A stretch of 60,426 bases of DNA from Acholeplasmataceae bacterium (GCA_012718985.1 JAAYBG010000025.1:1-60426), one strand, 5' to 3'. Counted from the first letter of the stretch, positions 19,605-38,899 are shown. Numbers and translations: made by a program. Notes: generated from the sequence alone by a model not told the origin.

Positions 19605-20116
19605 ACATTATTCCCCTTTTCCACAAATTTCACCAAGTCAATTAGGTTATCAATTGTGGTCTTTACGATGACAATCTCCCAAAAACTTAACAATATAAGA
19701 ATCACAATAGCAATATTTGGATGTTTCTTATCCAACCAAAAATAAGAAATATAGGCTGTTATTAAATCTATCGCATAGGGAACAAGAACAATCTGATCAA
19801 TTTTAAATTTTTCATATGCTTTAACAATCGTAACATTTTGTTCTAGTTTGCTATCGTAATCTTTTGTTATGAACAACACTTTTTTATTAATGATAAGCGT
19901 TAATAGTATTGCCAGTGCAAAACCTCCGCTTTTTAACACAACATAAAGTGTATTGACAAAAGAAACGCCTCCTAAATAGATAATATAAATGCTTTCTGTA
20001 CAAAACCAATTAACCCCTAGAAAAAATGTTAAAGCCGGAATTGTTATGATGATGATAATCATAATATAAATACCATAAAGGGCAAAAAGCCCTTTATTTT
20101 TTCTCGATTTTATCAC
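19601..20116 (-). CDS. hypothetical polytopic membrane protein
   Basis: 171 aa with 4-5 hydrophobic spans. Overlaps the gyrA stop by 4 nt, so it is probably cotranscribed. No recognisable family. Confidence 0.5.
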
Positions 20117-22728
20117 GATTTTTCCTTATCTTCCTCATCACGAAAGACGTAATCTTCATCATAGGTGAATCCTTCATTATCTTCCTCTGAATCGTTTTCG
20201 CCTTCTTCGCTTCGTGGAACAATCGCCATAGAAGATACGCTATGACCTTCGTTCAATTTGATAATACAAACTCCTTGAGTATCTCTTCCTACAGTCAAGA
20301 TTTGGTCGAGGTGAGTTCTGATAATCATTCCTTTGTCGGTAATGACTAATAAATCTTCATCTCCTCGTACTGTTGATAAAGAAATCATTTTACCATTCTT
20401 AGCGGTTATATTTAATGCTTTTACTCCTTTACCACCACGGACCTGGACTCTAAACGCATCAACATTGGTTCGTTTTCCATACCCTTTTTCGGTTACGATT
20501 ACAATTTCGTCTCCATCTGTATTAACAATGGCCATTCCTACCATCTGTTCGCCATCTTCTACTTTTAACCCTCTGACTCCTGCAGCAATTCTTCCCATTG
20601 GGCGAATATCTGATTCGCTGAACCGAATTGCTTTTCCATTAGAAGCCCCTAGAATAATGTCTTTTTCTCCATCGGTAACGGAAACTTCGAACAACTCGTC
20701 ACCATCATTTAAAAGGATTGCTTTAATTCCGTTTGTTCTGATGTTACTGAATTCGGAAATTTCTGTCTTCTTTACAATTCCTCGACGAGTTGCAAACAAT
20801 AAGTAGCCATCATTCTTTTCTTCTTCTTTCACATTTACAACCGCTGCTAATTTTTCATTTTCATCAAAATTTAAAATATTAACAATCGGTAATCCTTTAG
20901 CGATACGACTCGAAATCGGAATTTGGAACGCTTTTAGACGATATATTTTCCCGAAGTTACTGAAGAAAAGCAAGGTGTCGTGGGTTGAGGTAAATAGAAC
21001 TTGGTCTACATAATCCGCATCTGAAATTTTAGCTCCTGTAATTCCTTTACCCCCACGATTTTGAGCACGATATGTGTCTACTGTCATTCTCTTTACATAT
21101 CCTTTATTTGTAACGGTGATAATAACATCCTCTACGGGAATCAAATCAGCGTCTTCAATCACTAGATCATCACTTAGGCTAATTTCACTATTCCGTGCAT
21201 CGCCGAATTTTTCTTTCATTTCGGTTAATTCACCAATGATGATTTCTAGTTTTTTACCCTGGTTCTTCAGGATTTCTTTATACTCGCTAATTTCTCGTTT
21301 CAATGAAGCTAATTCTTCTTTTAACTTATCAATTTCCAATCCTGTTAAACGTTGTAGCTTCATATCCAGAATTGCTTTTGCTTGTATCTCGGTTAAGTTG
21401 AATGCTTCGATTAAGCCCTTCACCGCATCTTCGGTTGTCTTAGAGCGTTTAATTAGCTGAATAACGGCATCAATATTCCCTAAAGCGGTTAGTAATCCTT
21501 CTACTATATGTGCTCTGGCTTCTGCTTTTTCTAAATCGTATTGTGTTCTTCTAGTGATTACTTCAATTTGGTGTTCTAGATAGCATTCCAATACCTCTTT
21601 TAGATTAAGTACTTTCGGTTGCCCTTTATCCAGCGCTAAAATATTAACCCCAAATGTCGATTGTAATTGGGTATGCTTGTATAGATTGTTTAAAACAACA
21701 TTAGGATTAGTATCGCGACGTAATTCAACTACAATTCGCATCCCTTTCCTTGTAGATTCATCTTGCAATCCTGTGATACCTTCAACTATTTTTTCATTAG
21801 CAATGAAGGCAATTCTTTCTATTAATTTTGTTTTATTTACTTGATAAGGAATCTCGGTTATGATAATTTCTATTTTCCCGTTTTCTAATTCTTTAATCTC
21901 GCATTTCGCCCGAATTGTAATGGTGCCATTTCCTGTCATGTAAGCTTTTCTTACTTGACTAAGGCCCATAATACATCCTCCTGTTGGGAAATCGGGACCT
22001 TTGATATGGTTCATTAATCCTTCAATAGATATGTCCGGATTTTTTATTAAGGCAAGAATTCCATCGATTACTTCGCTTAGATTGTGAGGCGGAATATTCG
22101 TTGCCATACCAACAGCAATTCCTGTTGCTCCATTTACGAGGATGTTCGGGAAGCGACAAGGTAAAACAACCGGTTCTTTTTCGCTTCCATCGTAGTTATC
22201 TTGAAAGTCAACAGTGTTTTTTCCTAAATCACGAAGCAATTCCATCGCAATTTTGCTCATTCTTGCTTCTGTATAACGCATTGCCGCTGCTCCATCACCA
22301 TCAATAGAACCAAAGTTACCTTGGCCATCAACCAGAGGATATCGGTAACTAAAATTTTGTGCCATTCTCACCATCGAGTCATAAATAGCAGAATCTCCAT
22401 GAGGATGATACTTACCCATAACATCTCCGACGATTCGTGCTGATTTTTTATACGGTTTATCCGATCCAACGCCTAATTCATCCATCGCAAATAGAATACG
22501 ACGATGAACTGGCTTCATTCCATCACGAACATCTGGTAGTGCACGTGCTACAATTACGCTCATGGCATAACTTAAGAAAGAAGTCTTCATTTCTTTGGTT
22601 AAATCGATTTCTTTCACTCCGCCTAAGTGATGACCATCAACGACATGATCAATGACTTCTGTATCTGCTTCTAAGTTTTCTTCTTTTTCTTCTATTTCTG
22701 AAAGTGTTTTTTCAGTTTCTTTTTCCAC
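20113..22728 (-). CDS. gyrA: DNA gyrase subunit A
   Basis: [35 protein letters not shown] and C-terminal beta-pinwheel repeats. GTG start after GGTGGTG. About 40-aa N-terminal extension and an acidic tail. Confidence 0.95.
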
Positions 22729-22740
22729 CCGTTACACCAC

Positions 22741-25727
<2,987 letters not shown>

Positions 25728-25744
<17 letters not shown>

Positions 25745-25955
25745 CGTCTTTACCTATAAGAAACTTCTTTTTATCAACAATCACGGCAAATCCATTATAT
25801 AGTTTTCGCCCTCTTCGTTGCTCCGCCTCGCCATTAACCAGTACTATCTGGTCTTGCAAGAAAGCTTTTGCCTGTGATCCACTATCAATAACACCTACAT
25901 ATTTTAAAAACTGACCTAAGGTGATATATTCTGTTTTTATTGTGATTTTAGTCAT
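25728..25955 (-). CDS. yaaA: S4-domain RNA-binding protein YaaA (RlbA-like)
   Basis: 75 aa. ITLGQFLK...VLVNGE...RRGRKLY matches the B. subtilis YaaA pattern. Overlaps the recF start. Confidence 0.8.
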
Positions 25956-25982
25956 ATTTTTTCCTTCTTAATTATTATGTAT

Positions 25983-26011
25983 ATTATACCATAAACTCTT
26001 GCTTTTTCCTA
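25983..26011 (-). promoter_or_regulatory. extended -10 promoter for yaaA-recF-gyrBA
   Basis: Minus strand has TGGTATAAT (-10 at 25983-25988 with TG), a 17-nt spacer and a weak -35 TAGGAA (26006-26011). It lies about 25 nt upstream of the yaaA RBS. Confidence 0.5.
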
Positions 26012-26624
26012 GTCTTTTTTTTACTTTTTTTGAACTCTTTTGATTTTTAGCCCTTTTTTTCGCCTGTAATCGCTTTTTTTGCTTATTTTTTATTCGCCTT
26101 TACTTTTTCATGAAAAAAACGAAAATAAAGCCGTTTTCCCCGCTGCTCTTTTTTCCGTTGTTTTTTATACATAAATAAGTATATATGGTTATCTTTGTCC
26201 TGTCCCTTTTGATTTAGTTTCTTTTGAGTTGATAATTCTGTTGATAATCCTTATGTATATACCTATATAGGTAAATATTTATTTTTCTAGGCTTATTTTA
26301 AAAGGTGTTAAAAATAATTTAATCTTTTTTGTAGCTATGTTTTTCTCATAAGGATGTATGGTTTTACTTATATCCATAAATACTTATTAAATATTTATTT
26401 TCTTTTTTCATCTGTTAGGTTGTTTTTCTTTAGATTATACCTATTTAACGATAGCTTTGTTTTGTTTTTTAAGATCCTTTTTAGAGAAACAACAAATTTC
26501 TGGATAAGCGTTCTTATCGGATTGTTTTATTTATTGATGTATATATGTATATAAATATGATAATTTTCTTTTTCGACGCTTTTTCTGTGCCTATATGCCG
26601 TAGATAGCTCTCGCTTTATCGTCA

Positions 26625-27035
26625 ACATTTATTTATATATGTATATATGTGTAACTTTATTTAACTTTTCTACATATGATGATGTATCCATTCCCCTTGT
26701 TTAAACCATCTTTTCCCTTGCATATTTGAAATTATCTCTCAAAACAAGAAAAAAACTTGTTAATCAGTAAGTTTCTTTCTTGTTTTTATTATCTTTCGCA
26801 CGATTTCCTTTACACATTTACTTATATATGTATATATGTGTGACTTTATTTAACTTTACCGTACATGATGATGTATCCATTCTCTTGTTTAAACTATCTT
26901 TTCGCTTGTCTGTTTGAAATTATCACTCAAAAAAAAGAAAAAGACTTGTTAATTAATAAATCTTCTTCTTGTTTTTCTTATCAATAGCCGATTTCCTTTA
27001 CATATTTACTTATATATGTATATCCATACATACAA
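26625..27035. repeat. tandem direct repeat, about 188-189 bp unit, about 2.2 copies
   Basis: Unit A 26625-26813, unit B 26814-27001 and partial unit C from 27002. A and B align along their full length by eye with scattered substitutions and small indels. Each unit starts with the iteron. Confidence 0.85.
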
Positions 27036-27819
27036 ATGCTTCTTTTCCTCGCCCTTTTTACAAATTTATATACTCTTTGTTTTAATTTTAATCTTTTCTT
27101 TTTACTTAAAAACAAATTAAAAACGCCTTCGTGCTAGATTTCCTGTTAAAAATGATATTTAATGAACTTGATTTTGTGATTTTTTGTTAAAATATGGATA
27201 TACACATCTGTTTTTATGGCAAAAAGCAACCGCTTTTTATCCTTTAATAAATATTTACATAAATACATATAAAGTCTTGATTTCCTTTCGTTTCTATTAT
27301 ATAATATGTGCATAAAGATAATCATCCAGGTTGGGATGGCTTTTTTGCTCTTGTTTTTCTAAACAAAACGAAAAAACGAAATCTTTTTTTGTTATATCTG
27401 ATCGCAACAAAACAACACTAATACGCATTTACATATATATGTATTTATTCTTATACATATATATTTATTTGTTTGTTTATTTATATACTTATTTATTGCG
27501 CTTTCCGTCGCACATCTACCGAAAAACAGGCCAAAAAACGGTTTTTACCTCTTTTTAAAGAGAATTTTTACCCCTTAAAATTTTTTGTGCGTTGTTTTCA
27601 ACGACCCACCCCTAATAACTTTACCTATTTTTGTATAAAAACGATTTAAAACGAAATTTATCGGCGTTTTAATGGGGTTGTATTTTTGGTTTAAAACTTA
27701 AGGACTTTAGAGGAATAGGTTTTCTGGTTTTTGTCGTTACTTTTCCCTGTCGGCCTAGGGTTAAACGACTAAAAATCTCTTTTTTCTTTCCTAAAAAAGA
27801 GTAAAAAAGCAAAAAATAC

Positions 27820-27839
27820 ACATATATACATATATATGT
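27820..27839. promoter_or_regulatory. 20-bp near-perfect AT palindrome upstream of the RHH gene (candidate operator)
   Basis: ACATATATACATATATATGT; the two half-sites match at 9 of 10 positions. Confidence 0.5.
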
Positions 27840-27842
27840 AAA

Positions 27843-27890
27843 TATGTTTTTGTTTTTGTATGTTTTTATGTTTATATGTTTTTGTGTATA
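27843..27890 (+). repeat. three tandem 16-bp direct repeats (TATGTTTTT core)
   Basis: ATGTTTTT begins at 27844, 27860 and 27876, exactly 16 bp apart. The array ends about 12 nt before the AAGGAGG RBS of the RHH gene. Confidence 0.7.
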
Positions 27891-27915
27891 TATTTATAGC
27901 AAGGAGGTTGACACA

Positions 27916-28128
27916 ATGAACAGATCATCATTCCCGTTTCAAAAGCGAGAAAATCCTTTAGCGCCTGCTACTAAACAAACGCGCGCCAGCGAGAAAGAGA
28001 AGTACACAGCTGTTATGGAAAAAGAATTACGAGTAAGGGTTAAGATTGCTGCTGCTAAGAAAAGTTTACAGTTTTCACAGTATATTGAAGAAGCGGTTCT
28101 TGAAAAACTAGAAAGAGAGGGCTTATAA
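27916..28128 (+). CDS. ribbon-helix-helix (CopG/Arc/ParG/omega-like) DNA-binding protein
   Basis: AAGGAGG, 8 nt, then ATG at 27916. 70 aa with a basic, probably disordered N-tail, then YTAVMEKELRVRVKIAAAKKSLQFSQYIEEAVLEKL (beta-strand, helix, helix pattern). Its stop overlaps the ParA start (TAATG). Confidence 0.65.
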   Translation: MNRSSFPFQKRENPLAPATKQTRASEKEKYTAVMEKELRVRVKIAAAKKSLQFSQYIEEAVLEKLEREGL

Positions 28129-28913
28129 TGTCTGTTGTTTCTACTTTTTGTAAGAAGGGTGGCGTCGGCAAAAGCACTTTTATTGGTTTTTTAGCGCATT
28201 ATTACGCTACTTTAGGGAAAAAGGTTTTAATTATTAGTGCCGATGACCAAAATAGTATCTTTAAAATCTTCGGTGTAGAAGAGAAAATCTTCGATACTAA
28301 TGATAATTATTTAGAATTTTGGTTAGCAGGACATGCTGAACTAGGAGATATTTTAATAGAAGCCAGAGAAAACCTCTATTTAATTAAAACTTTAAATACC
28401 GACAAACTTTCTATGAAGCTAACTTTAGAAAGAAGCCAAGAAAAAATAATAAAAAAATTAATTGTTGATTGCTCTAGCTACTTTGATTATATTTTTATCG
28501 ACTTTCCACCATCAAGCAATCGCTTAACGGAGATTTTATTAGATTTTAGTCATCATATTTTGATTGTTGTCGGCTTAGATAGCCTCGGATTAGGTGGTTT
28601 TTTCAATACAATTCAATATTTTATCGATAATGATATTGATTTAACAAAAATTAAGTATGTTTTACCCAACGGATACAGCAAAAATAGAAGGGCTCCTAAG
28701 GTTTCTTTAGAAAAATTACAAGAACAAGCAAAAGAATTCACCAAATCGGCAACTGTTCTTCCCGCTTTGCAAGAGAAATCTATTATTAAAAACCTTCAAG
28801 CAGAAGGAATTAGCGTTTTTGATGTTACTTCTTTAGAACGTTATGATCAAACAAACAAAGATTTGTTACAAAAAGACCTATTAGAATTGTTTAAATTAAT
28901 AAATTTAGAATAA
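28128..28913 (+). CDS. parA: ParA/Soj-family partition ATPase (small, type Ib-like; deviant Walker A)
   Basis: KKGGVGKST deviant Walker A at residues 9-17 with no N-terminal HTH extension. ISADDQNS and FIDFPPS (Walker B-like). 261 aa. Confidence 0.8.
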   Translation: MSVVSTFCKKGGVGKSTFIGFLAHYYATLGKKVLIISADDQNSIFKIFGVEEKIFDTNDNYLEFWLAGHAELGDILIEARENLYLIKTLNTDKLSMKLTLERSQEKIIKKLIVDCSSYFDYIFIDFPPSSNRLTEILLDFSHHILIVVGLDSLGLGGFFNTIQYFIDNDIDLTKIKYVLPNGYSKNRRAPKVSLEKLQEQAKEFTKSATVLPALQEKSIIKNLQAEGISVFDVTSLERYDQTNKDLLQKDLLELFKLINLE

Positions 28914-28940
28914 AAAAAGAGTTTTTCGACTCTTTTTTTT
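28914..28940. terminator. bidirectional terminator between convergent parA and dnaN
   Basis: AAAAGAGT / ACTCTTTT stem with loop TTTTCG, flanked by an A-run and a T-run. Confidence 0.6.
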
Positions 28941-28941
28941 A

Positions 28942-30066
28942 TTATGATACTCTTACTGGCAATATTAATTGAATTAAATTACGATCGTATTCTCCTGTGA
29001 TAATAAATGGTCTTACTTCTCCAGTAAAATGCACCGTTACTTCCGTAGAATCAAATGATTTGATCGCTTCTAAAAAATATTTTGAGCTGAAAGCGATTTG
29101 GAAAGGAACTACATTGCTACATTCAATTGGATTTAGTTCTTCTTGTGCCGCACCGATTTCATTGGTTGTTGAAGCAATCTCCACGGTTTTATCGCTGTTT
29201 AACGTCAATTTTATAATGTTAGAAGAATCCATATTAGTAAATACAGCTGCTCTTTCGATTGCTGAAATGAGCTCGTTTTTGTTAAATTTTATGCTGGTTA
29301 AGAATTCTGTAGGAATTAAACTGTTTGTATTTGGGAAAGTCCCGTCAATTAAGCGAGTTTGATATAACAAATTCTTGTATTTAAACAACGCTTTCGTATG
29401 GCTTATGTGAATCTCCACAAGAGTTTCACCTTCATCGACGATTTTATTTAGTTCATCCAAGCTTTTTCCTGGAATTACTACCTTTATTTCTGGATAATCG
29501 ACATTAAATTTAAGTTGTTTTTTCGCTAATCGATAACTATCTGTTGAAACAACTTCTAACAAATTCCCTTGAGAAGTAACAGAAACTCCTGTTAATATTA
29601 CTCTTGACTCAGATAAAGAAACCGCAAAGGTTGTTTTTCTGATTAATTGTTTTAAGTTAATCGCATCTAAAGTAAGAAATGTTGGTGAATCTGCAAAAGA
29701 TATTATAGGATAATCATCTTTAGAAAGAACATTTAGGGTGAAATTACTTTTATCTGCTAATATTTTAATGGCGTTGTCTTCAAAAGACTCAAAATATATT
29801 TCTTTCGCTTCGGTTTTCTTTACTAGTTCAATTAAATATTTTCCCGGTGCTATGAAAGTCCCCTCTTCTTCTATTTTCACATGTTTTTTATCATCAATAC
29901 ATGCTTGAATAGAAATTTCACTGTTCGATGCTGTTAGTAATATTTTATTATCAACAACATCAATTTTAATTCCTGTTAAGACAGGCATTTGCGCTTTAGT
30001 AGATAAAGCTTTGCTAACTGAAGTTAAGTTTTGCAACAATAGATCTCTATTAATTGTAAAAATCAT
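28942..30066 (-). CDS. dnaN: DNA polymerase III beta sliding clamp
   Basis: 374 aa. MIFTINRDLLLQNL...MPVLTGI..., three-domain length and position downstream of dnaA. Confidence 0.9.
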   Translation of the reverse strand: MIFTINRDLLLQNLTSVSKALSTKAQMPVLTGIKIDVVDNKILLTASNSEISIQACIDDKKHVKIEEEGTFIAPGKYLIELVKKTEAKEIYFESFEDNAIKILADKSNFTLNVLSKDDYPIISFADSPTFLTLDAINLKQLIRKTTFAVSLSESRVILTGVSVTSQGNLLEVVSTDSYRLAKKQLKFNVDYPEIKVVIPGKSLDELNKIVDEGETLVEIHISHTKALFKYKNLLYQTRLIDGTFPNTNSLIPTEFLTSIKFNKNELISAIERAAVFTNMDSSNIIKLTLNSDKTVEIASTTNEIGAAQEELNPIECSNVVPFQIAFSSKYFLEAIKSFDSTEVTVHFTGEVRPFIITGEYDRNLIQLILPVRVS

Positions 30067-30116
30067 AAAAGGCTCCTTTATTATTTATCTTTATTTTTTA
30101 TTTTTATTATTAAGAA

Positions 30117-30133
30117 TGTGTAAAAGTGGAAAA
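30117..30133 (-). promoter_or_regulatory. two adjacent DnaA-box-like 9-mers in the dnaA-dnaN spacer
   Basis: Minus strand has TTTTCCACT (30125-30133) and TTTTACACA (30117-30125), each 7/9 to TTATCCACA. They are followed toward dnaN by about 45 bp of nearly pure A/T. Confidence 0.4.
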
Positions 30134-30136
30134 CTG

Positions 30137-31534
30137 TTATTTTTCAATGCTTTTTAGTAAAATTTCAATATCGTTCTTAACTAGAGGGTCATTTTGTTGC
30201 ATAAAAACAATTTTATCGATTCCATAAGAAACCGTAGCATGATCTCTGTTTCCGAAAGCTTCTCCTATCGTTTTTAATTGAATATTAAATTTATCGCGCA
30301 AGAGAAACATTGCAACATGACGAGCATAAGCAATTTTTTGCTTGCGTGACTGAGAAGTTAGGTCTGAAACGGCAATTTTGTAATAATTAGCAACAATATT
30401 TTTTGTTTGTTCAATTAATTTAGAAGAGGAAGAAACATTTTTTAGATCTTTTTCTTTAGGAAGAGTATTCTCTAAGGCGATTAACATGTTTTCTACAGTG
30501 AAAGGAATGTTTAAACAAATACAATAGGTAACAAAGCCCCTCAAAGCTCCTTCCAAATCACGAATATTGTTAGGAAAATAATCAGCTAAAGCATCTAAGA
30601 CCTCTAAAGGAACATCGCTAGGATCTTTAATTAATGTAGAGAGCTTGCTTTTTAAGATATTAACCCTTAAATTTTTGTCAGGATGTTTAATATCTACTGA
30701 AAGCCCCCAATTAAAGCGAGACCGTAATCTAGGCATGATGTCTGTAAGTTCGTTTGCGGGTTTATCAGAAGTGATAACAATTTGTTTGTTTAAACCGATA
30801 AGATGCTCGAAGACTTTAAAAAACTCTTCTTGTGACCATTTTTTTGATTGAAGAAATTGGATATCATCGATTAAAAGAACATCTACGTCTCGATATTTGG
30901 AATAAAAAGATTCTATTCTTTCAATACTGTCTCCAGAACCTTTCTTTTTATTTGTTGCGAGGAAGTAGTCTTCAGCAAATTTTTGACTGCTTGCGTAAAG
31001 AATTTTCGAATCGATTTTATTATCGAGAATATAGTTTCCTATAGCAGACATTAAATGTGTTTTCCCTAATCCTACATCACCAAAAATATATAAAGGGTTA
31101 TACATTTTTTCAGCAGATTCAGCAGATTCGGCAGTTTTCATCGCCGCGATGAAAGCAAAGCGATTGCTTTCTCCAACTTCAAAGGAGTTAAAAGTAAAGG
31201 TTGGAGATAAAGTACGTGTAGCATAGCTTAATTCTGGTGTTTGTAGAGGTTCTTTTGATTGTTCCTCCAACTCTTTTTCAATATCAGCTTTAGTAACAAA
31301 TTTGAATTTTATGAGTTCATCAGAAAGTTTAGCTACTAATTTATTGAGCTTATCAACATAGAACTTCTCAATTCTAAACTTATCAAAAGAACGGGCGACT
31401 GGAATATAAATATATCCACCTTCAGCCTTGTAAATTTCGGTTAATTCCGCAAACAGGGAATTAAAATCATCCTCATTTATTTCTTCTTTAAGCATATTGA
31501 GAGTTTCTTGCCACAATGTGATAGGACCGCGCAT
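30137..31534 (-). CDS. dnaA: chromosomal replication initiator DnaA
   Basis: GDVGLGKTHLM Walker A, LLIDDIQF, C-terminal DNA-binding domain (ARHVAMFLLRD...FGNRDHATV). Start set at the ATG (MRGPITLWQ) preceded by GAGAGGGG. Confidence 0.93.
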   Translation of the reverse strand: MRGPITLWQETLNMLKEEINEDDFNSLFAELTEIYKAEGGYIYIPVARSFDKFRIEKFYVDKLNKLVAKLSDELIKFKFVTKADIEKELEEQSKEPLQTPELSYATRTLSPTFTFNSFEVGESNRFAFIAAMKTAESAESAEKMYNPLYIFGDVGLGKTHLMSAIGNYILDNKIDSKILYASSQKFAEDYFLATNKKKGSGDSIERIESFYSKYRDVDVLLIDDIQFLQSKKWSQEEFFKVFEHLIGLNKQIVITSDKPANELTDIMPRLRSRFNWGLSVDIKHPDKNLRVNILKSKLSTLIKDPSDVPLEVLDALADYFPNNIRDLEGALRGFVTYCICLNIPFTVENMLIALENTLPKEKDLKNVSSSSKLIEQTKNIVANYYKIAVSDLTSQSRKQKIAYARHVAMFLLRDKFNIQLKTIGEAFGNRDHATVSYGIDKIVFMQQNDPLVKNDIEILLKSIEK

Positions 31535-31621
31535 AAAAAAACCCCTCTCATTTATTCCATACACAAATGATACCATAAAACAGAAAAATAATAAATAGAA
31601 AAGTGAAAAAACTTTTCAACA

Positions 31622-31637
31622 TTCCACATGTGGAAAA
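31622..31637. promoter_or_regulatory. palindromic DnaA-box pair upstream of dnaA
   Basis: TTCCACATGTGGAA palindrome (31622-31635). TGTGGAAAA (31629-31637) is the complement of TTTTCCACA, 8/9 to consensus. Confidence 0.5.
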
Positions 31638-31744
31638 AAAGGGGAATAAAAAAGGCAGTTTTCCTAATTCTTTCCCTAAGTAGAAATGTGGGAAGAAAAA
31701 CTATATATAATATAGAAAGAGAAATTAACAAAAAGAAAAAAATA

Positions 31745-31772
31745 TTGCAATAAAAATAATTTATGGTAAAAT
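31745..31772 (+). promoter_or_regulatory. promoter for the 324-aa gene
   Basis: TTGCAA (31745-31750), a 16-nt spacer ending in TGG, and TAAAAT (31767-31772). Confidence 0.55.
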
Positions 31773-31796
31773 ATTATCAGCATTAAATTAAAAAGA

Positions 31797-32771
31797 ATGG
31801 AGGCAGTAAACAAGAGTTTACTGGTTGGAAAAATGGAAAATCTAAAGGCAAAAAAACAAGAAGGCAAAAAAGAAAAAAGCAGCGGAATTTTTAGTTTCCC
31901 TAGCAAATTAAATAACATAACAATTATTTTAATCATATTGGCTTATGCTGTTGTTGCTTTTTGGGCGTTGCTTAGCTTTTTCCCAGAATACAATTATGTG
32001 GTAATTCCAGAATATAAGCATGTAGAATATAACTATGAAGTAGCCCCATATATTAAATCAACCAACGTTATAACCAAAAGCGGAACAGGGGAAATAGCTG
32101 TGAAGCATTCCTATACAGCGTATATTTATAATAACTATTCAACTGCTTTGAATAATGTCAGTTTTCAATTCAGCGGATTAACCAACGAAAACACAATGGA
32201 TTATATCTCTGGCATTGATTATTGGAGTTCAACAAGTGCCCCAACCATTCATACTATGATGAGTAACCAGTCTGTTAGTGGCGGGGGATATCAAAAATTA
32301 TTTGGGAAAATTCAATATCATTATAAAAGAAGCGAAGAAGAGATTCTTAAGAGGACAGTAACATTTGGTGAAGAAATCATTAAATTAAAGAAAAGCGAGC
32401 TTAATAGTTCGAAATTCACCGATAAAACAGATATTTTAGGAAAAATTAATTTTTCTGTAAAGGCAAACGAACCGATTAGTGATTCAACAAACTATACGAT
32501 TACCAACACGATTAACTTTACTAATCCTAGTGAGAGGTTCCACTTCGATTTTCAAGCTTTCATTGTAACAAGCGATAAAGAAATATATCCTATTGGAGGA
32601 TTATATAACTATTACTACTTCTCTACAGTAGATACATCAATAGCTATGACAAGCAAAGCAAATAAAACAATTGATATCGAATATATCTATATTAAGGGTT
32701 TTTATACCGACGCAAACAATTTAAAAACAGAAATTTTATACAAGATTGACTTTAAAGATATCTTGATATAA
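31797..32771 (+). CDS. hypothetical membrane-anchored protein (N-in single TM, Y/N/T-rich ectodomain)
   Basis: Basic N-terminus, one TM helix (ITIILIILAYAVVAFWALLSFF) and about 260 aa of beta-rich-looking sequence. No motif recognised. The start is uncertain (31797 or the ATG 36 nt downstream). Confidence 0.55.
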   Translation: MEAVNKSLLVGKMENLKAKKQEGKKEKSSGIFSFPSKLNNITIILIILAYAVVAFWALLSFFPEYNYVVIPEYKHVEYNYEVAPYIKSTNVITKSGTGEIAVKHSYTAYIYNNYSTALNNVSFQFSGLTNENTMDYISGIDYWSSTSAPTIHTMMSNQSVSGGGYQKLFGKIQYHYKRSEEEILKRTVTFGEEIIKLKKSELNSSKFTDKTDILGKINFSVKANEPISDSTNYTITNTINFTNPSERFHFDFQAFIVTSDKEIYPIGGLYNYYYFSTVDTSIAMTSKANKTIDIEYIYIKGFYTDANNLKTEILYKIDFKDILI

Positions 32772-32988: not shown

Positions 32989-33031
32989 AGGACCACTCGT
33001 ATGTCAACAATGATTAGGAGTGGTCTTTTTT
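32989..33031 (+). terminator. hairpin plus T-tract between rpmH and rnpA (partial terminator/attenuator)
   Basis: Stem AGGACCACTC / GAGTGGTCTT, a 19-nt loop and TTTTTT. Confidence 0.5.
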
Positions 33032-33050
33032 GTTGCTGATTGGAGGGAAA

Positions 33051-33395
33051 ATGAATAGGAAATACAGTTTAAAAAAAAGCTATGAAATAGAAAAAGTGAT
33101 GTCTTTGAAAAAAAGTGTAGGAAATAGATTTTATACAATTTATTATCAACAAAGCGAAGGCGAAATGAAAATAGCAATATCGGTTTCTAAAAAAGTTGGC
33201 CGTGCGGTTATTAGAAATTATGAAAAAAGGGCTGTAAGAGAGATTATTAGAAAAAACAAAAAAGAATTGATAGGAATCAAGGCTTTAATCATTATAAAAA
33301 GGTTAGCAGTAGAGTTAACGTTTCAAGAAAAAGACGACAGTTTAAGTAATTTGTTTAGTAAAATATTGAAGGAGAAAAAAAATGAACAAAAATAA
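33051..33395 (+). CDS. rnpA: ribonuclease P protein component
   Basis: Basic 114-aa protein after rpmH (KKVGRAVIRNYEKRAVRE, an RNR-like motif). ATG follows GGAGGGAAA; the upstream TTG start in the track is rejected. Confidence 0.85.
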   Translation: MNRKYSLKKSYEIEKVMSLKKSVGNRFYTIYYQQSEGEMKIAISVSKKVGRAVIRNYEKRAVREIIRKNKKELIGIKALIIIKRLAVELTFQEKDDSLSNLFSKILKEKKNEQK

Positions 33396-34350
33396 ATGGA
33401 AATATATTATTGCTGCAGTATTAATTGTGGGATTATTTTTCTTAAGTGGCTGCAGAAAGCAAGAAGCAGAAATAGTTTACCAACCAATATATGGCTTCAA
33501 GTTCCCTTCGTGGGATTTCTTAGTTTGGCCGATGACCATGTTAATGTGGGGGTTGGGGAAAACAATTGCCTTTGGTAATTATGGTGTCGCAATTGTTTTA
33601 GCAACAATAGTTGTGAGAACTGCAGCTTGGCCGATTTATGCCAAGTCTAACGATATGTCATTAAAAATGCAATTAGTCGGACCTGAACAAGCAAAGATTG
33701 AAGCAAAATACGCTGAAAAGACAGATCAAGAGAGTCAACAAAGAAAACAAATGGAAATGATGCAACTTTATAAAAAGTATGGAATTGGACTTAGTGGATG
33801 TTTGATGCCGTTTTTACAATTGCCAATCTTTATTTCTTTCTTTGAAACATTAAGAAGAATCCCCTCAACAACAACGACATACTTAATAGAAAACCCAGAA
33901 GTTGCTACTAAATTAGGGATTGTGAAATTACCAATTGACTTTGATTTTATGAATACAACAATTTTGGGAATAGATTTGTTTAAGGATAAAAGCATGGGGG
34001 GATGGCAAGAGATTGGAATATATATTCTTGCGGGATTAGTAGGATTAACACAATTAGGAAGCCAAATTTTACTAACAAAAAGACAAGAAAAGCAAAAAGA
34101 AAGCATGCAAGCAAGTCTTCCAGCATATCGTCGTCCAGAAAAAACAGAGCAACAAAGGCAAACAGAAACGATGATGAAAGTCATGATGTATGGAATGCCG
34201 ATAATGATGGTTATATTTATTATAACAAGTCCAGCAGCGTTGGGTCTTTATTGGTTTGTTGGTAATATTTATTCTACTTTCCAAAGTTATATTGGAAGTA
34301 AATCAAGTAGCGCAAGACTTGAAAAATTAAGAATCAAGATGAAAAAATAA
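33382..34350 (+). CDS. yidC: membrane protein insertase YidC (lipoprotein type)
   Basis: Lipobox LSGC, YGVAIVLATIVVRT and MQLYKKYG motifs, basic C-tail. Confidence 0.88.
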   Translation: MNKNKWKYIIAAVLIVGLFFLSGCRKQEAEIVYQPIYGFKFPSWDFLVWPMTMLMWGLGKTIAFGNYGVAIVLATIVVRTAAWPIYAKSNDMSLKMQLVGPEQAKIEAKYAEKTDQESQQRKQMEMMQLYKKYGIGLSGCLMPFLQLPIFISFFETLRRIPSTTTTYLIENPEVATKLGIVKLPIDFDFMNTTILGIDLFKDKSMGGWQEIGIYILAGLVGLTQLGSQILLTKRQEKQKESMQASLPAYRRPEKTEQQRQTETMMKVMMYGMPIMMVIFIITSPAALGLYWFVGNIYSTFQSYIGSKSSSARLEKLRIKMKK

Positions 34351-34364
34351 GGAGATTTATAGTA

Positions 34365-34982
34365 ATGAAAACAAAAATATATGAAGTAAAAACTATAGCT
34401 GAAGCAAAGGAACTAGCGATAAAGGATTTTGGCGTTAGTGAAGAAAATTTTGAAATCAATATTCTAAAAGAAACAAAGGGTTTTCTAGGAATTGGTGGAA
34501 AACTTGAAGTTGAAGTTAAAGTTATAACTAATGGCGTTGCTAAAGCAAAAGAATATATTCAAATGATTTTAAATACAAACGGAATCGAAGGGTTTATAGA
34601 AAAGAAAGAACGAGAAGGTAGCGTAGAGTTTAGCATTGATGCTGGAGAATATAATGGCTATTTAATCGGGAAAAACTCAAGAAATTTAATTGCATTACAA
34701 ACATTAGTTTCCATTATTGTAAACAACTATTGTGAGAAAGATGAAATTAAAACAGTATTAGTTGATGTTGGCGGATATAAAAAACGTCGCGAAAAAAATA
34801 TCGAGAGCATGGCTGTTGAGTACGGTAAACAAGTTGCCAGAACAAAGCACCCCGTTCGTTTAGATGGATTAAATGCTTATGAAAGAAAAATAATTCACAA
34901 TAAATTATCTTCATGGAAGGATGTAAAAACATATTCTGAGGGAGAAGAACCAAATAGAATTCTTGTTATCGAAGCAAAATAA
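34365..34982 (+). CDS. jag: RNA-binding protein Jag/KhpB (Jag_N, KH, R3H)
   Basis: Position after yidC. GYLIGKNSRNLIALQ (KH GxxG-like) and ERKIIHNKL (R3H). Confidence 0.85.
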   Translation: MKTKIYEVKTIAEAKELAIKDFGVSEENFEINILKETKGFLGIGGKLEVEVKVITNGVAKAKEYIQMILNTNGIEGFIEKKEREGSVEFSIDAGEYNGYLIGKNSRNLIALQTLVSIIVNNYCEKDEIKTVLVDVGGYKKRREKNIESMAVEYGKQVARTKHPVRLDGLNAYERKIIHNKLSSWKDVKTYSEGEEPNRILVIEAK

Positions 34983-35007
34983 AAAAAGGGAGAGAGTCCC
35001 TTTTTTT
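34983..35007. terminator. bidirectional terminator between jag and fic
   Basis: AAAGGGA / TCCCTTT stem with loop GAGAG, flanked by A and T tracts. Confidence 0.6.
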
Positions 35008-35016
35008 CTATATTAT

Positions 35017-35667
35017 TTACCCTTTTATGTCAATAAAATCCATAAAAGGAAGGATATTCTTGTTTACTTTAAATTCTTCTAAGCAAGCAAAGTATTTATC
35101 TTTTTTGTTATAGTCAAGAATGACAGGATCGAAATTGTTTTTCAACAATTGATAATTAAGTACAATACGCGCACATCTACCATTTCCATCTAAGAAAGGG
35201 TGGATTTTCATTAGTTGTAAATAACTAAAAGCAATTTGTTCCTTAATGTTATCCGTAGGAGTGTTGATGGTATCAAAGTACTTCTTCATACGATCATAAA
35301 CTTTGATATGGCTTGGGGGTGTATGATTAGATCCCCTAACAGAAATGTCTACATTACGATAAAGGCCGCCAATGCCTAAATCCTTCATTATAATTTCATG
35401 TAAATCTTTTAATTTGTTTTCGGTAAAAGCTTCTTCTTTTTCTAATAAATCTAGTATAAATAAAAAGCCGTTAAGATTGTTGTTCACAATAGTCACTTTG
35501 TTTTTTTCAATGTCAGTACTATCTCCATTGATAATTCTTGCTACTTCATCAAGGGAAACGACACTTGTTTCAAAAGAGATAGAATTATAAATAAAATCAA
35601 TTAAAAAATTAACAGTGATTTTTTTAGATGCTTCACTATGCATGCTCGATAAGTTGAAAGCAATCAT
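35017..35667 (-). CDS. fic: Fic family protein (putative AMPylase)
   Basis: Canonical HPFLDGNGRCAR Fic motif. N-terminal SISFET resembles the inhibitory (S/T)xxxE(G/N) helix with T at the last position. AAGGAGGGG RBS. Confidence 0.85.
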   Translation of the reverse strand: MIAFNLSSMHSEASKKITVNFLIDFIYNSISFETSVVSLDEVARIINGDSTDIEKNKVTIVNNNLNGFLFILDLLEKEEAFTENKLKDLHEIIMKDLGIGGLYRNVDISVRGSNHTPPSHIKVYDRMKKYFDTINTPTDNIKEQIAFSYLQLMKIHPFLDGNGRCARIVLNYQLLKNNFDPVILDYNKKDKYFACLEEFKVNKNILPFMDFIDIKG

Positions 35668-35878
35668 ATTAACCCCTCCTTTATCTTAGGTAATTCATTA
35701 TACCACGAAAGAAAAATAAAAGGAAGTAATATAACAAATTAAATGTGACAATAATAAAAACAAAGATAAGGAAAAAGCAAAATAAAAAAAGATATTTGGT
35801 GAAGGAAATGAGTAAAATAATTGAGAAAAAAATGAGTTTATGCTATTATGAATATGGTAAACAAGCAAAGGAGAAAAT

Positions 35879-37537
35879 ATGACAGATATTGAAATCGCCC
35901 ACAGTGTTAAAATGAAGACAATAAAGGAAATAGCGAAAAAATTTCAAATAAAGGAAAGCATGCTTGATTATTTTGGTAAATATCGTGCAAAGCTGGATTA
36001 TCAAAAGATTCACCAAACAAAAAGAGGGAAATTAATTCTTGTTTCTGCTATCACTCCTACACCGGCAGGAGAAGGAAAGACAACCGTTAGTATAGGATTA
36101 AGCGATGCTATTAATTTAAGAGGAAAAACTTCGATATTAGCGCTTAGGGAGCCTTCGTTAGGTCCTGTTTTTGGTTTAAAAGGGGGAGCAACTGGGGGCG
36201 GATATGCTCAGGTAATCCCGATAGAAGACATCAATTTGCATTTCAATGGTGATTTTCATGCGATCACAACCGCAAATAATCTTTTGTCCTCTTTGATTGA
36301 TAATCATTTATATCAGGGGAATGCTTTAAATATTGATGAAAACAGAATAGTTTTCAATCGTTGTTTAGATTTAAATGACCGTGCATTAAGAAATATCGTC
36401 GTTAGTAATGGCGGAACAAAAAAAGAAGTTTTACGGAAAGAAAAATTTAATATTACCGCAGCAAGTGAAATTATGGCCATTATGTGCTTATCTAAAGATA
36501 TTCACGAATTAAAAGAAAACTTAGCAGACATTACAGTTGCTTATGATAAAGAAGGGAAAGCCGTTACAGCAAGAGATCTCAATGCTCATCATGCAATGGC
36601 AATTCTTCTGAAAGAAGCTCTAAAACCAAATGTTGTTCAGACGCTTGCTGGTAATTTAGCATTGATTCATTGTGGACCTTTTGCCAATATTGCTCATGGT
36701 TGTAATAGCATTATAGCTACAGAATCGGCGATGAGCTTGGGTGAATATACAGTAACGGAGGCAGGTTTTGGAGCTGACTTAGGGGCGGAGAAATTTCTTG
36801 ATTTAAAATGCAGAAAAATAAATATCATGCCAAATGCTGTAATTATAGTTGCCACGGGCAGAGCTTTAAAAATGCATGGAGGAATCCCTAAAGAGGAATT
36901 GACAATTGAAAATGTAGAAGCGATAAAAAAAGGTGCAGAGAATTTAATTAAACATATCAAAAACATGACAACAGTCTTTGGATTACCAACGATAGTTGCT
37001 ATTAATAAGTTTAGCAGTGACACAAATCGAGAACTAGAAACAATAAAAGAGATTGTCGCTACGCAAAAGGTAAAAGCAGTTGTTGTTGAGGTGTGGAGTA
37101 AAGGTGGCGAAGGAGCTTTAGAACTTGCAGATGAAGTGATAAAACTATGCGAGAAAGAAAAGAAAACCCAGTTTGTTTATGATGTAACAGACAGCCCGGA
37201 AACCAAAATAATGAAGATAGCCACTAAAATATATGGTGCAAAAGCAGTAAAATACTCTGAAGAAGCAAAAGAAACATTAATAGAAATTGAAAAGAGAAAG
37301 CTTAATGAGCTTCCTGTTGTGATTGCCAAGACACAATATTCTTTAAGTGATAATCCAAAATTATTGGGAGTTCCAAAGGAACATGAATTGACGATAAAGA
37401 GTATAGAAATTAGGACAGGAGCGAAAATGATTGTAGCAATCGCCGGAGATATGCTATTAATGCCAGGATTAGGAAAAGTGCCGGCCGCCGAAAACATGAG
37501 AATAGATGATAAGGGGAACATTTCAGGATTATTCTAA
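35879..37537 (+). CDS. fhs: formate-tetrahydrofolate ligase
   Basis: 552 aa. PTPAGEGKTT P-loop, EPSLGPVFGLKGGATGGGY and final GLF. Confidence 0.92.
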   Translation: MTDIEIAHSVKMKTIKEIAKKFQIKESMLDYFGKYRAKLDYQKIHQTKRGKLILVSAITPTPAGEGKTTVSIGLSDAINLRGKTSILALREPSLGPVFGLKGGATGGGYAQVIPIEDINLHFNGDFHAITTANNLLSSLIDNHLYQGNALNIDENRIVFNRCLDLNDRALRNIVVSNGGTKKEVLRKEKFNITAASEIMAIMCLSKDIHELKENLADITVAYDKEGKAVTARDLNAHHAMAILLKEALKPNVVQTLAGNLALIHCGPFANIAHGCNSIIATESAMSLGEYTVTEAGFGADLGAEKFLDLKCRKINIMPNAVIIVATGRALKMHGGIPKEELTIENVEAIKKGAENLIKHIKNMTTVFGLPTIVAINKFSSDTNRELETIKEIVATQKVKAVVVEVWSKGGEGALELADEVIKLCEKEKKTQFVYDVTDSPETKIMKIATKIYGAKAVKYSEEAKETLIEIEKRKLNELPVVIAKTQYSLSDNPKLLGVPKEHELTIKSIEIRTGAKMIVAIAGDMLLMPGLGKVPAAENMRIDDKGNISGLF

Positions 37538-37549
37538 AGGGGGAAAAGT

Positions 37550-38899
37550 ATGAATGACACAATTGCAATGATATCAACGCCACTAGGAAGCGGGGGAATA
37601 TCTATTATAAGAATCAGTGGTCAAGAAGCGCTAATTATTGTTAATAAATTGTTTAGAGGTAAGGATTTGTATAAGGTTGCTTCTCATACGATTCACTATG
37701 GTCACATTGTCGACAAAAACGAAGTGATTGATGAAGTTCTTGTCAGTGTCATGAAGGCTCCCAAAACATATACCCGCGAAGATGTTGTAGAAATAAGTTG
37801 CCATGGAGGGGTTTTTGTTACCAATAAAATCCTAGAAATGCTTTTGGTGATGGGAGCTAGATTAGCAGAACCAGGAGAGTTCACCAAAAGAGCTTTTCTA
37901 AATGGTCGCATCGATTTAACTCAGGCAGAATCTATTATGGATATTATAGAAGCAAAGACAAAAACAAATTTGAAAATAGCGAATTTGGGATTAAGAGGCG
38001 ATGTAAAGAGATTAATAGATGATTTTCGTAGTCGTTTATTAACTTGTATGGCAAAAATAGAAGTTAACATTGATTATCCAGAATATGAAGATGAAGAACA
38101 AATTACCATTGAAATATTAAAACCAACTATGGAAGCAATGAATGAGGAGCTCGAAAGCATTCTCAACAAATGCGAAACATCTCGAATTATCAAAGAGGGA
38201 ATTAAAACAGTTATCATAGGAAAACCCAACGTAGGAAAGTCTAGTTTACTAAATGCTCTTCTACGTGAAGAAAAAGCAATAGTTACGGATATAGCGGGAA
38301 CAACTAGGGATATTGTTGAAGGAAAAGCGAATATAGGAGGAATAATTCTCAATTTAATTGACACAGCAGGGATAAGAGATTCAAGCGATGTTGTTGAAAA
38401 GATAGGAATTAAAAAAACAAAAGAAGCGATTAATATGGCAGATCTTATTATTCTTGTTTTTGATAACAGTACTTTGCTTGATGATTATGACCATAAATTA
38501 TTAGAGTTAACAGAAGATAAGAGGCGGATCATTGTTATTAATAAACAAGATTTACAATCAAAAATTAATTTATCTGAAATAAAAGACTATATTTTATTGT
38601 CCTCGTTTAATGAAAAAGATATTGAAAAACTTGAAAACAAAATAAAAGAAGAGTGTATAGTAGGAAACATCAACGAAATGGATGCATCTTATATCGGTAA
38701 CGCTCGGCAGGTTGCAAAATTGAAACAAGCCAAAAAAGCCATTGAAGATAGTTTACAATCAATTAAAGAAAAAATGCCAATCGACATTGTTTCTATCGAC
38801 ATTAAGGCAGCGTGGCATTATTTAGGCGAAATAACAGGAGATGTTGCAAACGAAAGTTTAATCAACGAATTATTTTCCAAGTTTTGTTTAGGAAAATAG
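37550..38899 (+). CDS. mnmE: tRNA modification GTPase MnmE
   Basis: DTIAMISTP N-terminus, GKPNVGKSSLLNAL G1, DTAGIR G3 and C-terminal FCLGK. Confidence 0.92.
   Translation: MNDTIAMISTPLGSGGISIIRISGQEALIIVNKLFRGKDLYKVASHTIHYGHIVDKNEVIDEVLVSVMKAPKTYTREDVVEISCHGGVFVTNKILEMLLVMGARLAEPGEFTKRAFLNGRIDLTQAESIMDIIEAKTKTNLKIANLGLRGDVKRLIDDFRSRLLTCMAKIEVNIDYPEYEDEEQITIEILKPTMEAMNEELESILNKCETSRIIKEGIKTVIIGKPNVGKSSLLNALLREEKAIVTDIAGTTRDIVEGKANIGGIILNLIDTAGIRDSSDVVEKIGIKKTKEAINMADLIILVFDNSTLLDDYDHKLLELTEDKRRIIVINKQDLQSKINLSEIKDYILLSSFNEKDIEKLENKIKEECIVGNINEMDASYIGNARQVAKLKQAKKAIEDSLQSIKEKMPIDIVSIDIKAAWHYLGEITGDVANESLINELFSKFCLGK

Follow-up and report, generated by a model that had tools for sequence, protein, structure and literature searches.

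A ParA and Ribbon-Helix-Helix Gene Pair with a Field of Phased Repeats between dnaN and yaaA: A Candidate Origin-Region Positioning Module in Acholeplasmatales-Like Bacteria

Introduction

Why are dnaN and yaaA held almost 3 kb apart in an Acholeplasmataceae bacterium, and what is the function of the two opposite-strand genes and the long gene-free tract that lie between them? We addressed this question in a 60,426-nucleotide stretch of DNA (GCA_012718985.1, JAAYBG010000025.1:1-60426; hereafter, the window), in which the interval between the two genes is 2,986 bp long (25956-28941). The interval contains a gene-free field (25956-27915), a gene for a 70-aa ribbon-helix-helix (RHH) protein (27916-28128, plus strand), and a gene for a 261-aa deviant Walker A ATPase of the ParA/MinD type (28128-28913, plus strand). 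An earlier, sequence-only reading of the window, all of whose coordinates we verified, had proposed that this arrangement is an insert that splits the operon in one strain and that it has the architecture of a plasmid partition locus. Our analysis indicates that the three parts probably form a vertically inherited chromosomal module for positioning or segregation of the origin region, in which the RHH protein would also regulate its own operon.

Bacterial chromosome partition is thought to depend almost universally on ParB-CTPase sliding clamps that are loaded at parS, and RHH-type adaptors are regarded as a solution used by plasmids and also by archaea. In plasmid type Ib systems (ParF/ParG/parH and delta/omega) and in archaeal SegAB, ParA positions DNA by a diffusion-ratchet-type mechanism. 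Orphan ParA genes beside dnaA occur in some Mycoplasma genomes. We know of no described partition system of a bacterial primary chromosome that uses an RHH adaptor.

Results

The RHH and ParA genes are the only credible genes in the interval, as the sequence-only reading had stated, and their products have matches in Pfam, PDB, and Foldseek searches and to AAA_31 and CbiA. Both lie on the strand opposite to that of their neighbors. The RHH gene is preceded by an AAGGAGG ribosome-binding site, and its stop codon overlaps the start codon of the ParA gene (TAATG), so that the pair forms an overlapping two-gene operon.

The 261-aa protein matches AAA_31 (8e-23), CbiA (8e-9), and, weakly, many ParA/MinD models, and it falls below every curated NCBIfam equivalog cut-off. 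It is small, contains KGGVGKS at residues 10-16, and has no N-terminal helix-turn-helix (HTH) domain, which are the features of a type Ib ParA. The invariant K9/K10-G-G-V-G-K15 is retained in 29 ParA homologs, the Walker A and B invariants are intact, and the mean column identity of the family is 78%. The closest solved structures by sequence are Helicobacter pylori Soj (7e-8, the best match), a mycobacterial ParA-like protein, pNOB8 ParA, and pSM19035 delta (2oze, 2e-6). An AlphaFold model of the protein (predicted local distance difference test [pLDDT] 82, predicted template modeling score [pTM] 0.85) matched Soj, delta, Borrelia plasmid ParA, McdA, MinD, BcsQ, and FleN with similar template modeling (TM) scores of about 0.6-0.75, with Soj models at the top. 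Identity to Bacillus subtilis Soj is about 29%; the profile alignment to Soj stopped at residue 175, before Soj R189 (non-specific DNA binding). Judged by sequence and model, the protein is a bona fide deviant Walker A ATPase that forms a subfamily of its own.

Because the fold is generic and no curated equivalog cut-off is reached, assignment of a partition role rests on context. The same two observations are compatible with a different view of the locus, in which the RHH protein is only an autorepressor, the ATPase has a function other than partition (control of DnaA or initiation, or positioning of another cargo or of the division site), and the repeats are regulatory or titration sites. 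The module adjoins dnaA-dnaN, and B. subtilis Soj regulates DnaA, both of which fit this view. Initiation control and partition can coexist, however, and further evidence described below leads us to consider a purely regulatory module unlikely, although it deserves to be taken seriously.

The 70-aa protein matches PDB entry 2kel (SvtR; 8e-6), an Arc-like PHROG, and Pfam 56B_RHH (3e-5, 24.1 bits, which is below the gathering score of 27.2). Its Foldseek matches are nearly all RHH proteins, including Arc, CopG, RHH antitoxins, and AmrZ (probability up to 0.98). In the structure model, residues 1-35 are disordered (low pLDDT), and the remainder contains a beta region and helices at residues 36-48 and 53-68. 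The protein has the ribbon-helix-helix fold that characterizes type Ib centromere-binding proteins.

We searched 1.84 billion representatives with a profile of the RHH family and found that the family is small and discrete, with 60 clusters at E ≤ 1e-10. Three regions can be distinguished in the protein: a conserved basic peptide (residues 1-14), a variable linker (residues 15-28), and the RHH domain (residues 29-70). The N-terminal peptide of the orthologs has the form PF-x-KR-x-NP, with F8, K10, R11, and P14 invariant; the linker varies from about 10 to 60 residues; and the beta-strand K-Y-T-A-x-M is invariant. Among the top 63 representatives, the N-terminal motif is present in 49 and the beta-strand in 62, and several of the representatives that lack the motif look like truncated sequences or have mis-called starts. 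This build, with an N-terminal basic peptide, a variable linker, and a beta-strand, appears from sequence and model to be that of type Ib centromere-binding proteins. A conserved basic N-terminal peptide on a flexible linker is a hallmark of adaptors that stimulate ParA, not of plain repressors, which argues against the view that the RHH protein acts solely as an autorepressor.

In public gene calls the RHH protein is 94 aa long (P0121, window 27844-28128) and starts at an ATG that lies within the TATG repeat array upstream of the gene; the 24 residues thereby added (MFLFLYVFMFICF...) come from translation of the repeats. The ribosome-binding site and the pattern of conservation indicate that the true start is at 27916.

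One family member has a different N terminus. Protein P0278, which is encoded on a contig of only 859 bp (L104; ENA ERZ28653801 scaffold_448889), carries MATKKGGLGKGLDSLI in place of the family peptide, joined to a family RHH domain. This N terminus is the canonical ParA-activating peptide of ParB/Spo0J (GLGKGLDSLI). The C terminus of a canonical soj gene lies upstream and the 5′ end of a family ParA gene lies downstream. Given the very short contig, P0278 may be either a natural swap of peptide and domain or an assembly chimera. If it is not a chimera, the swap would argue that the N-terminal peptide of the RHH family is an exchangeable module for contact with ParA; such contact would again speak against a role limited to autorepression.

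Loci related to the window were collected in two ways. A DnaN-based scan of species-representative genomes yielded 17 related loci, which belong to metagenome-assembled genomes assigned to uncultured "Bacilli," Acholeplasmatales, and Tenericutes and recovered for the most part from digester and gut samples; two more divergent members were added by protein look-up. A ParA-profile scan of metagenomes yielded 80 loci in which ParA is 54-100% identical to that of the window. The 98 related loci referred to below comprise 18 genome or assembly loci and the 80 metagenome loci.

The order dnaA-dnaN-(ParA<-RHH)-gap-yaaA-recF-gyrB-gyrA was found in every genome or assembly locus that is long enough (16/16), down to 47% DnaN identity, with gaps of 1.3-2.2 kb, and the two more divergent members show the same gene order. 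In the metagenome loci, the RHH gene is adjacent to the ParA gene in 75 of 76 cases (the spacing in the lone exception is slightly above the cut-off), dnaN is convergent in 59 of 64 (the exceptions are truncated or have a spacing slightly above the cut-off), and yaaA is present in 29 of 29, with gaps of 0.84-2.98 kb. Among the metagenome loci, L024 (Ga0116147_1000002, 231 kb) has the same sequence as the window. The block is not strain-specific, and in related loci the space is not occupied by ordinary genes. What had been described as an insert in one strain is instead an ancestral feature of the clade.

We also looked for mobile copies of the module. The best plasmid and phage ParA matches are at most 33% identical, and IMG/VR contains no relative. 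The nearest ParA homologs outside the family are encoded on plasmids of Bacillota and Fusobacteriota (27-31% identity). In agreement with the sequence-only reading, genes for an integrase, a transposase, a relaxase, or a Rep protein are absent from the dnaN-yaaA interval. Synteny throughout the clade and the lack of close mobile copies lead to the conclusion that the module is ancestral and chromosomal, and we rejected a recent mobile insertion on these grounds; the proposal that the module is dedicated to the chromosome is borne out.

The locus could instead be a decaying remnant of the partition locus of an ancient integrated plasmid or integrative and conjugative element that has no function today. 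Its architecture is like that of plasmid type Ib loci, and its nearest non-family ParA relatives are the plasmid proteins noted above. However, it occupies the same place in 98 deeply diverged loci, its catalytic invariants are intact, no mobile-element genes or mobile copies accompany it, and ParA is more conserved than the replication proteins next to it (77% identity in mid-range comparisons, versus 69% for DnaN and 55% for DnaA). We regard a functionless remnant as highly improbable.

The field at 25956-27915 has a GC content of 26% and is by far the largest stretch of the window that is free of open reading frames (ORFs); the median stretch outside ORFs of at least 100 aa is 82 bp. As the sequence-only reading had noted, the field has no credible ORF: those present are of low complexity and at most 75 aa long. 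They are not conserved in relatives; tblastn comparison of stop-to-stop segments of at least 20 aa with distant gaps gave only scattered, non-colinear matches of translated repeats.

The earlier reading had also pointed to a recurring AT motif in the field, and this was substantiated by counting: 12 of the 18 matches to ACATATATATGT in the window (with up to two mismatches) fall in the gap. The same reading called the repeats iterons. We found that the motif resolves into TATG/CATA tetramer boxes that are phased at 8 bp, with the unit T-W-T-A-T-G-K-W, and that these are not iterons of the replication type. The arrangement TATG-N4-TATG occurs 7 times, compared with an expectation of 0.08 ± 0.29, and none of 2000 dinucleotide-preserving shuffles reached 7. 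In 16 related gaps, distances between TATG boxes on the same strand peak at 8, 16, 24, 32, and 40 bp, and those between boxes on opposite strands peak at 6/14/22 and 10/18/26 bp. In 35 independent metagenome gaps, TATG-N4-TATG occurs at 3.49 per kb, compared with 0.098 per kb in the flanks.

In the window the boxes form about 10 clusters, which make the field a candidate regional centromere. From left to right, there is a CATA-N10-TATG cluster (26166-26192), a cluster with the palindrome ACCTATATAGGT (26248-26283), a cluster with TATGGTTTTAC...CCATAAATAC, whose unit type is common to relatives L005-L010 (26332-26383), and another cluster at 26527-26564. These are followed by a 189-bp tandem duplication (26625-27023; 2.1 copies, 86% matches). 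Each copy includes a TATATATGTATATATGTGT pair of boxes, at 26634-26654 and at 26823-26843, and there is another cluster at 26997-27037. An A/T-rich inverted repeat (AAAACAAGAAAAAAACTTGTTAAT...) has been doubled along with the box pair, a pattern that suggests turnover of the box array through unequal recombination. Farther to the right are a CATA-N4-CATA cluster (27254-27274) and a cluster that contains a perfect ACATATATATGT palindrome (27425-27468).

The longest array (27816-27898) has two inverted and about eight direct TWTATGTT units and ends 3 bp 5′ of the ribosome-binding site of the RHH gene. An array is located directly upstream of the RHH gene in 11 of 11 aligned loci. We consider the array at 27816-27898 a candidate for both the operator and the centromere core. 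That it overlaps the operon's own upstream region is what would be expected if the RHH protein were an autorepressor and nothing else; about 10 clusters spread over 1-3 kb, however, far exceed the needs of an operator.

A distant, gut-associated subgroup (L015 12302-13647, L017, and L074-L103) has gaps of about 1.3-1.5 kb that contain few TATG-N4-TATG pairs. The L015 gap contains 5-6 copies of ACTTTTAATTTAAAAATA, and in the gut-group loci L078-L103 TATTT recurs at a spacing of 8/16 bp. The RHH beta-strand of this subgroup is KYTSTM or KFTSVM. These sequences are suggestive of co-variation, in that the beta-strand and the box sequence may have changed together.

Between close relatives, the nucleotide identity of the gap is about 66%, with hundreds of indel columns, versus about 90% for the genes; from this difference it follows that most of the gap drifts while the tract itself, its length, and the arrays of boxes are maintained. 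The gap also contains a conserved element of about 110 bp that is present in one copy (27575-27690, plus strand). Its core (27612-27646) has the form CTAATAACTTTACC...AAAACGATT, and in the nine related loci that match the core pattern, it precedes the RHH start by about 300-370 bp and is always in the same orientation. It contains a block of 10-11 bp of pure G/C that flips strand between lineages (CCCACCCC, GGGGGTGGGG, and CCCCCGGGGG). The element is non-coding, belongs to no Rfam family, has no consensus fold, and is not a clear promoter; RNAalifold predicted no structure from 11 sequences and, from 7, only two short hairpins of low energy.

Such an element could mean that the gap is conserved on account of unannotated genes, for a small RNA or micro-proteins, and not on account of protein-binding repeats. 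Its fixed position and orientation favor this explanation, as does a promoter-like and terminator-like pair elsewhere in the gap (27277-27348, plus strand), which consists of a near-consensus TTGATT-17-TATAAT followed about 15 bp on by a terminator-like hairpin and T run. The pair could produce a very short transcript or could be a chance occurrence, and a sigma-70 promoter scan of the region found no more promoter-like sites than expected from shuffles. The only Rfam match over the gap at E ≤ 1 is sau-5971 (27.5 bits versus a gathering score of 90, E = 0.15), which we take to be due to chance. Since there is also no meaningful consensus RNA structure and no conserved ORF, and most of the gap diverges quickly by indels while the phased boxes persist, we think it very unlikely that hidden genes explain the gap.

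We next considered the relationship of the field to the replication origin. DnaA boxes (TTATCCACA, with up to one mismatch) are present upstream of dnaA at 4-17 per kb in 12 of 14 loci (there are none in L001 and L006), with 9-17 per kb, or 2-5 per ~200 bp, in most loci, and most loci have about one DnaA box in the dnaA-dnaN spacer of about 70 bp. In the gap, DnaA boxes occur at a background density of 0-1.8 per kb in 14 of 14 loci. In the window, the cluster upstream of dnaA lies at 31577-31796 (minus strand) and contains a TTTTCCACATGTGGAA palindrome. The dnaA-dnaN intergenic region (30067-30136, minus strand) contains a DnaA-box-like TTTTCCACT, followed by TAATAATAA trios and then an AT-rich run, and it is likely to be the unwinding part of oriC. 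Since the boxes lie on either side of dnaA and show no enrichment in the gap, we conclude that oriC is of the conventional kind and is located outside the gap. The module lies 2-4 kb from it.

Cumulative GC skew reaches its minimum at 27-28 kb, which agrees with an origin no more than a few kb away, but its resolution of a few kb cannot separate 27 kb from 30-31.6 kb. Both dnaN and dnaA (minus strand) show almost no GC skew, whereas the genes to their left are strongly skewed, which places the skew switch 2-4 kb to the left of the DnaA-box clusters. The position of the minimum, together with the AT-rich and repeat-rich character of the field and its proximity to dnaN, could be taken to mean that the field is part of the origin, as an auxiliary oriC element or as an iteron-type origin for another initiator. 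Neither form of this proposal agrees with the background density of DnaA boxes in the gap and their enrichment upstream of dnaA and in the spacer that carries the TAA trios and AT run, nor with the absence of a Rep gene from the interval; the skew does not have the resolution to support it. We rejected the gap as oriC, and consider an origin function of any kind very improbable.

The sequence-only reading had described the module as independent of ParB. Using a B. subtilis Spo0J query, we obtained no tblastn match at E ≤ 10 in the window and found no Spo0J-type ParB in the 18 + 80 related loci. The GERRxRA motif does not occur in six-frame translations of 107 sequences, and the 16-bp parS palindrome TGTTNCACGTGAAACA has only three matches, each with three mismatches, which is the level expected by chance. 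The called genes of extensions of 10 kb on either side include no ParB family member and only housekeeping genes. On the rpmH side (33030-38899), the genes are rnpA-yidC-jag-Fic (35017-35667, minus strand)-FTHFS (formate-tetrahydrofolate ligase)-mnmE, followed by unrelated genes. Because mnmE is not followed by mnmG, rsmG, noc, soj, and spo0J, the region lacks the place near the origin where soj-spo0J is usually found in Bacillota. The absence of ParB refers to about 80 kb around oriC and to the 98 related loci, and independence from ParB is supported over that range only. On the short contig L104, canonical soj lies beside the RHH variant.

The genes that flank the interval are all on the minus strand: gyrA (20113-22728), gyrB (22741-24678), recF (24668-25744), and yaaA (25728-25955) on the left, and dnaN (28942-30066), which forms the right boundary, and dnaA (30137-31576) on the right. 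yaaA encodes an S4-domain protein (TIGR02988 YaaA_near_RecF, 9e-28; PF13275, 1e-24); it bounds the interval on the left and heads the series yaaA-recF-gyrB-gyrA. The extended -10 element that the sequence-only reading assigned to this operon (TGGTATAAT, 25991-25983, minus strand) is present and is read as the operon's own promoter, with a counterpart (TGTTATAAT) in relative L010. Between the convergent ParA and dnaN genes, a hairpin with flanking A and T runs (28914-28937) is a probable bidirectional terminator. A 324-aa ORF without a Pfam domain (31797-32771, plus strand) lies between dnaA and rpmH and interrupts the usual rpmH-dnaA neighborhood; it is present in L001-L014 at 25-87% identity and absent from L015, L017, and L020.

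Discussion

Gene content, protein folds, the phasing and enrichment of the boxes, clade-wide synteny, and the lack of mobile copies were all shown by the analysis. On this basis, we infer that the RHH protein binds the boxes, stimulates the ATPase, regulates its own operon, and contributes to segregation. In the model that we favor as the probable explanation of the locus, RHH dimers would bind cooperatively to clusters of TATG boxes that are spaced at 8 bp in direct and inverted orientation. Occupancy of the clusters across the gene-free field of 1-3 kb would create a large nucleoprotein "regional centromere," and binding to the longest array, which covers the promoter and ribosome-binding-site region of the RHH-ParA operon, would bring about autoregulation. 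The RHH N-terminal peptide (PF-x-KR-x-NP), tethered by its flexible linker, would contact the ParA-ATP dimer and stimulate its ATPase activity, and nucleoid-bound ParA would then pull or position the origin-proximal DNA through a diffusion-ratchet mechanism.

Several points weigh against this model. Binding of the TATG boxes by the RHH protein and stimulation of ParA are both predictions from sequence. The fold of ParA is that of ParA/MinD proteins in general, and Soj, delta, McdA, MinD, and BcsQ are about equally close to it. The adaptor gene comes first and the ATPase gene second, which differs from the classical parA-parB order. The distant subgroup (ParA identity of 60% or less) keeps the synteny, yet TATG pairs are scarce in its gaps, which contain periodic units of other kinds. 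Finally, canonical soj is adjacent to a variant of the module on L104, and a canonical ParB may be encoded elsewhere in the genome.

A more far-reaching proposal, which we offer only tentatively, is that the ParB-CTPase/parS system has been replaced by an RHH-based, Ib-like ParA system in a large uncultured clade of Acholeplasmatales-like Mollicutes, with the 8-bp-phased TATG field of 1-3 kb beside oriC as the centromere. If it were correct, this would be the first segregation machine of a bacterial primary chromosome that is built on an RHH centromere-binding protein, and a counterpart of archaeal SegAB. A strongly conserved, clade-wide ParA-RHH module within the dnaA-dnaN-yaaA-recF-gyrBA cluster would mean that primary chromosomes, too, can make use of a type Ib mechanism, and it would account for an anomalous non-coding tract of 1-3 kb in streamlined genomes. 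It would also provide a compact three-part system (a 70-aa adaptor, a 261-aa ATPase, and 8-bp boxes) for reconstitution and for minimal-cell engineering. In P0278, with a ParB N-terminal peptide on an RHH domain, the idea that ParA-activating peptides are exchanged as modules would become open to test.

How does the module compare with known systems? Agrobacterium VirC1-VirC2 likewise combines a ParA/MinD-type ATPase with an RHH protein that recognizes repeats (VirC2 at the "overdrive" repeats). However, it functions in relaxosome and T-DNA processing beside a type IV secretion system (T4SS), whereas no relaxase, T4SS, or border repeat is present here, and the match of the present ParA to the VirC1 model is negligible (E = 0.026). 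We rejected both a VirC1/VirC2-like relaxosome accessory and a toxin-antitoxin pair, because there is no relaxase, T4SS, or toxin and the ParA ATPase motifs are intact.

Soj-Spo0J-parS resembles the module in its location near oriC and in the combination of a ParA-type ATPase with an origin-proximal centromere, which is a candidate in the present case; H. pylori Soj is also the best PDB sequence match. The partner here is an RHH protein and not an HTH/CTPase ParB, however, identity to B. subtilis Soj is low, and the window, its extensions, and the 98 related loci contain no GERRxRA motif, ParB homolog, or parS. Archaeal SegAB shares with the module a chromosomal ParA-like ATPase, a small site-specific DNA-binding partner that reportedly has an RHH-type fold, and sites near the operon, and SegA (7dut) is among the fold matches of the present ParA. 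It belongs to another domain of life and differs in gene order and site architecture, and there is no detectable specific sequence relationship, SegA being the 39th match (TMq 0.60).

The closest resemblance proposed by the sequence-only reading was to plasmid type Ib loci, on the grounds of a small Walker ParA, an RHH adaptor, and arrays of repeats, and this likeness holds. Like TP228 ParF-ParG-parH and pSM19035 delta-omega, the module combines a small ParA with no DNA-binding domain at its N terminus, a small RHH protein whose N-terminal tail is basic and apparently flexible, and short boxes in direct and inverted orientation at a fixed short spacing, with an array on the operon's own upstream region. 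The sites of ParG are tetramer boxes with 4-bp spacers, and those of omega are 7-bp heptads. By sequence as well as by fold, delta (2oze) ranks with the best matches of the present ParA. There are also clear differences. Type Ib loci are carried by a plasmid or other mobile replicon with parA followed by parB, whereas the present module is inherited vertically at a constant chromosomal site, between dnaN and yaaA, and its adaptor gene precedes the ATPase gene, unlike the nearest plasmid loci, in which ParA is first. The present ParA is only about 22-30% identical to any plasmid ParA protein, and the TATG box and the PFxKRxNP motif are specific to the present family. The field, with about 10 clusters in 1-3 kb, is 10-20 times larger than the ~0.1-0.2 kb of type Ib sites. 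Taken together, these comparisons suggest that the module works like a type Ib system but is not a member of the plasmid families.

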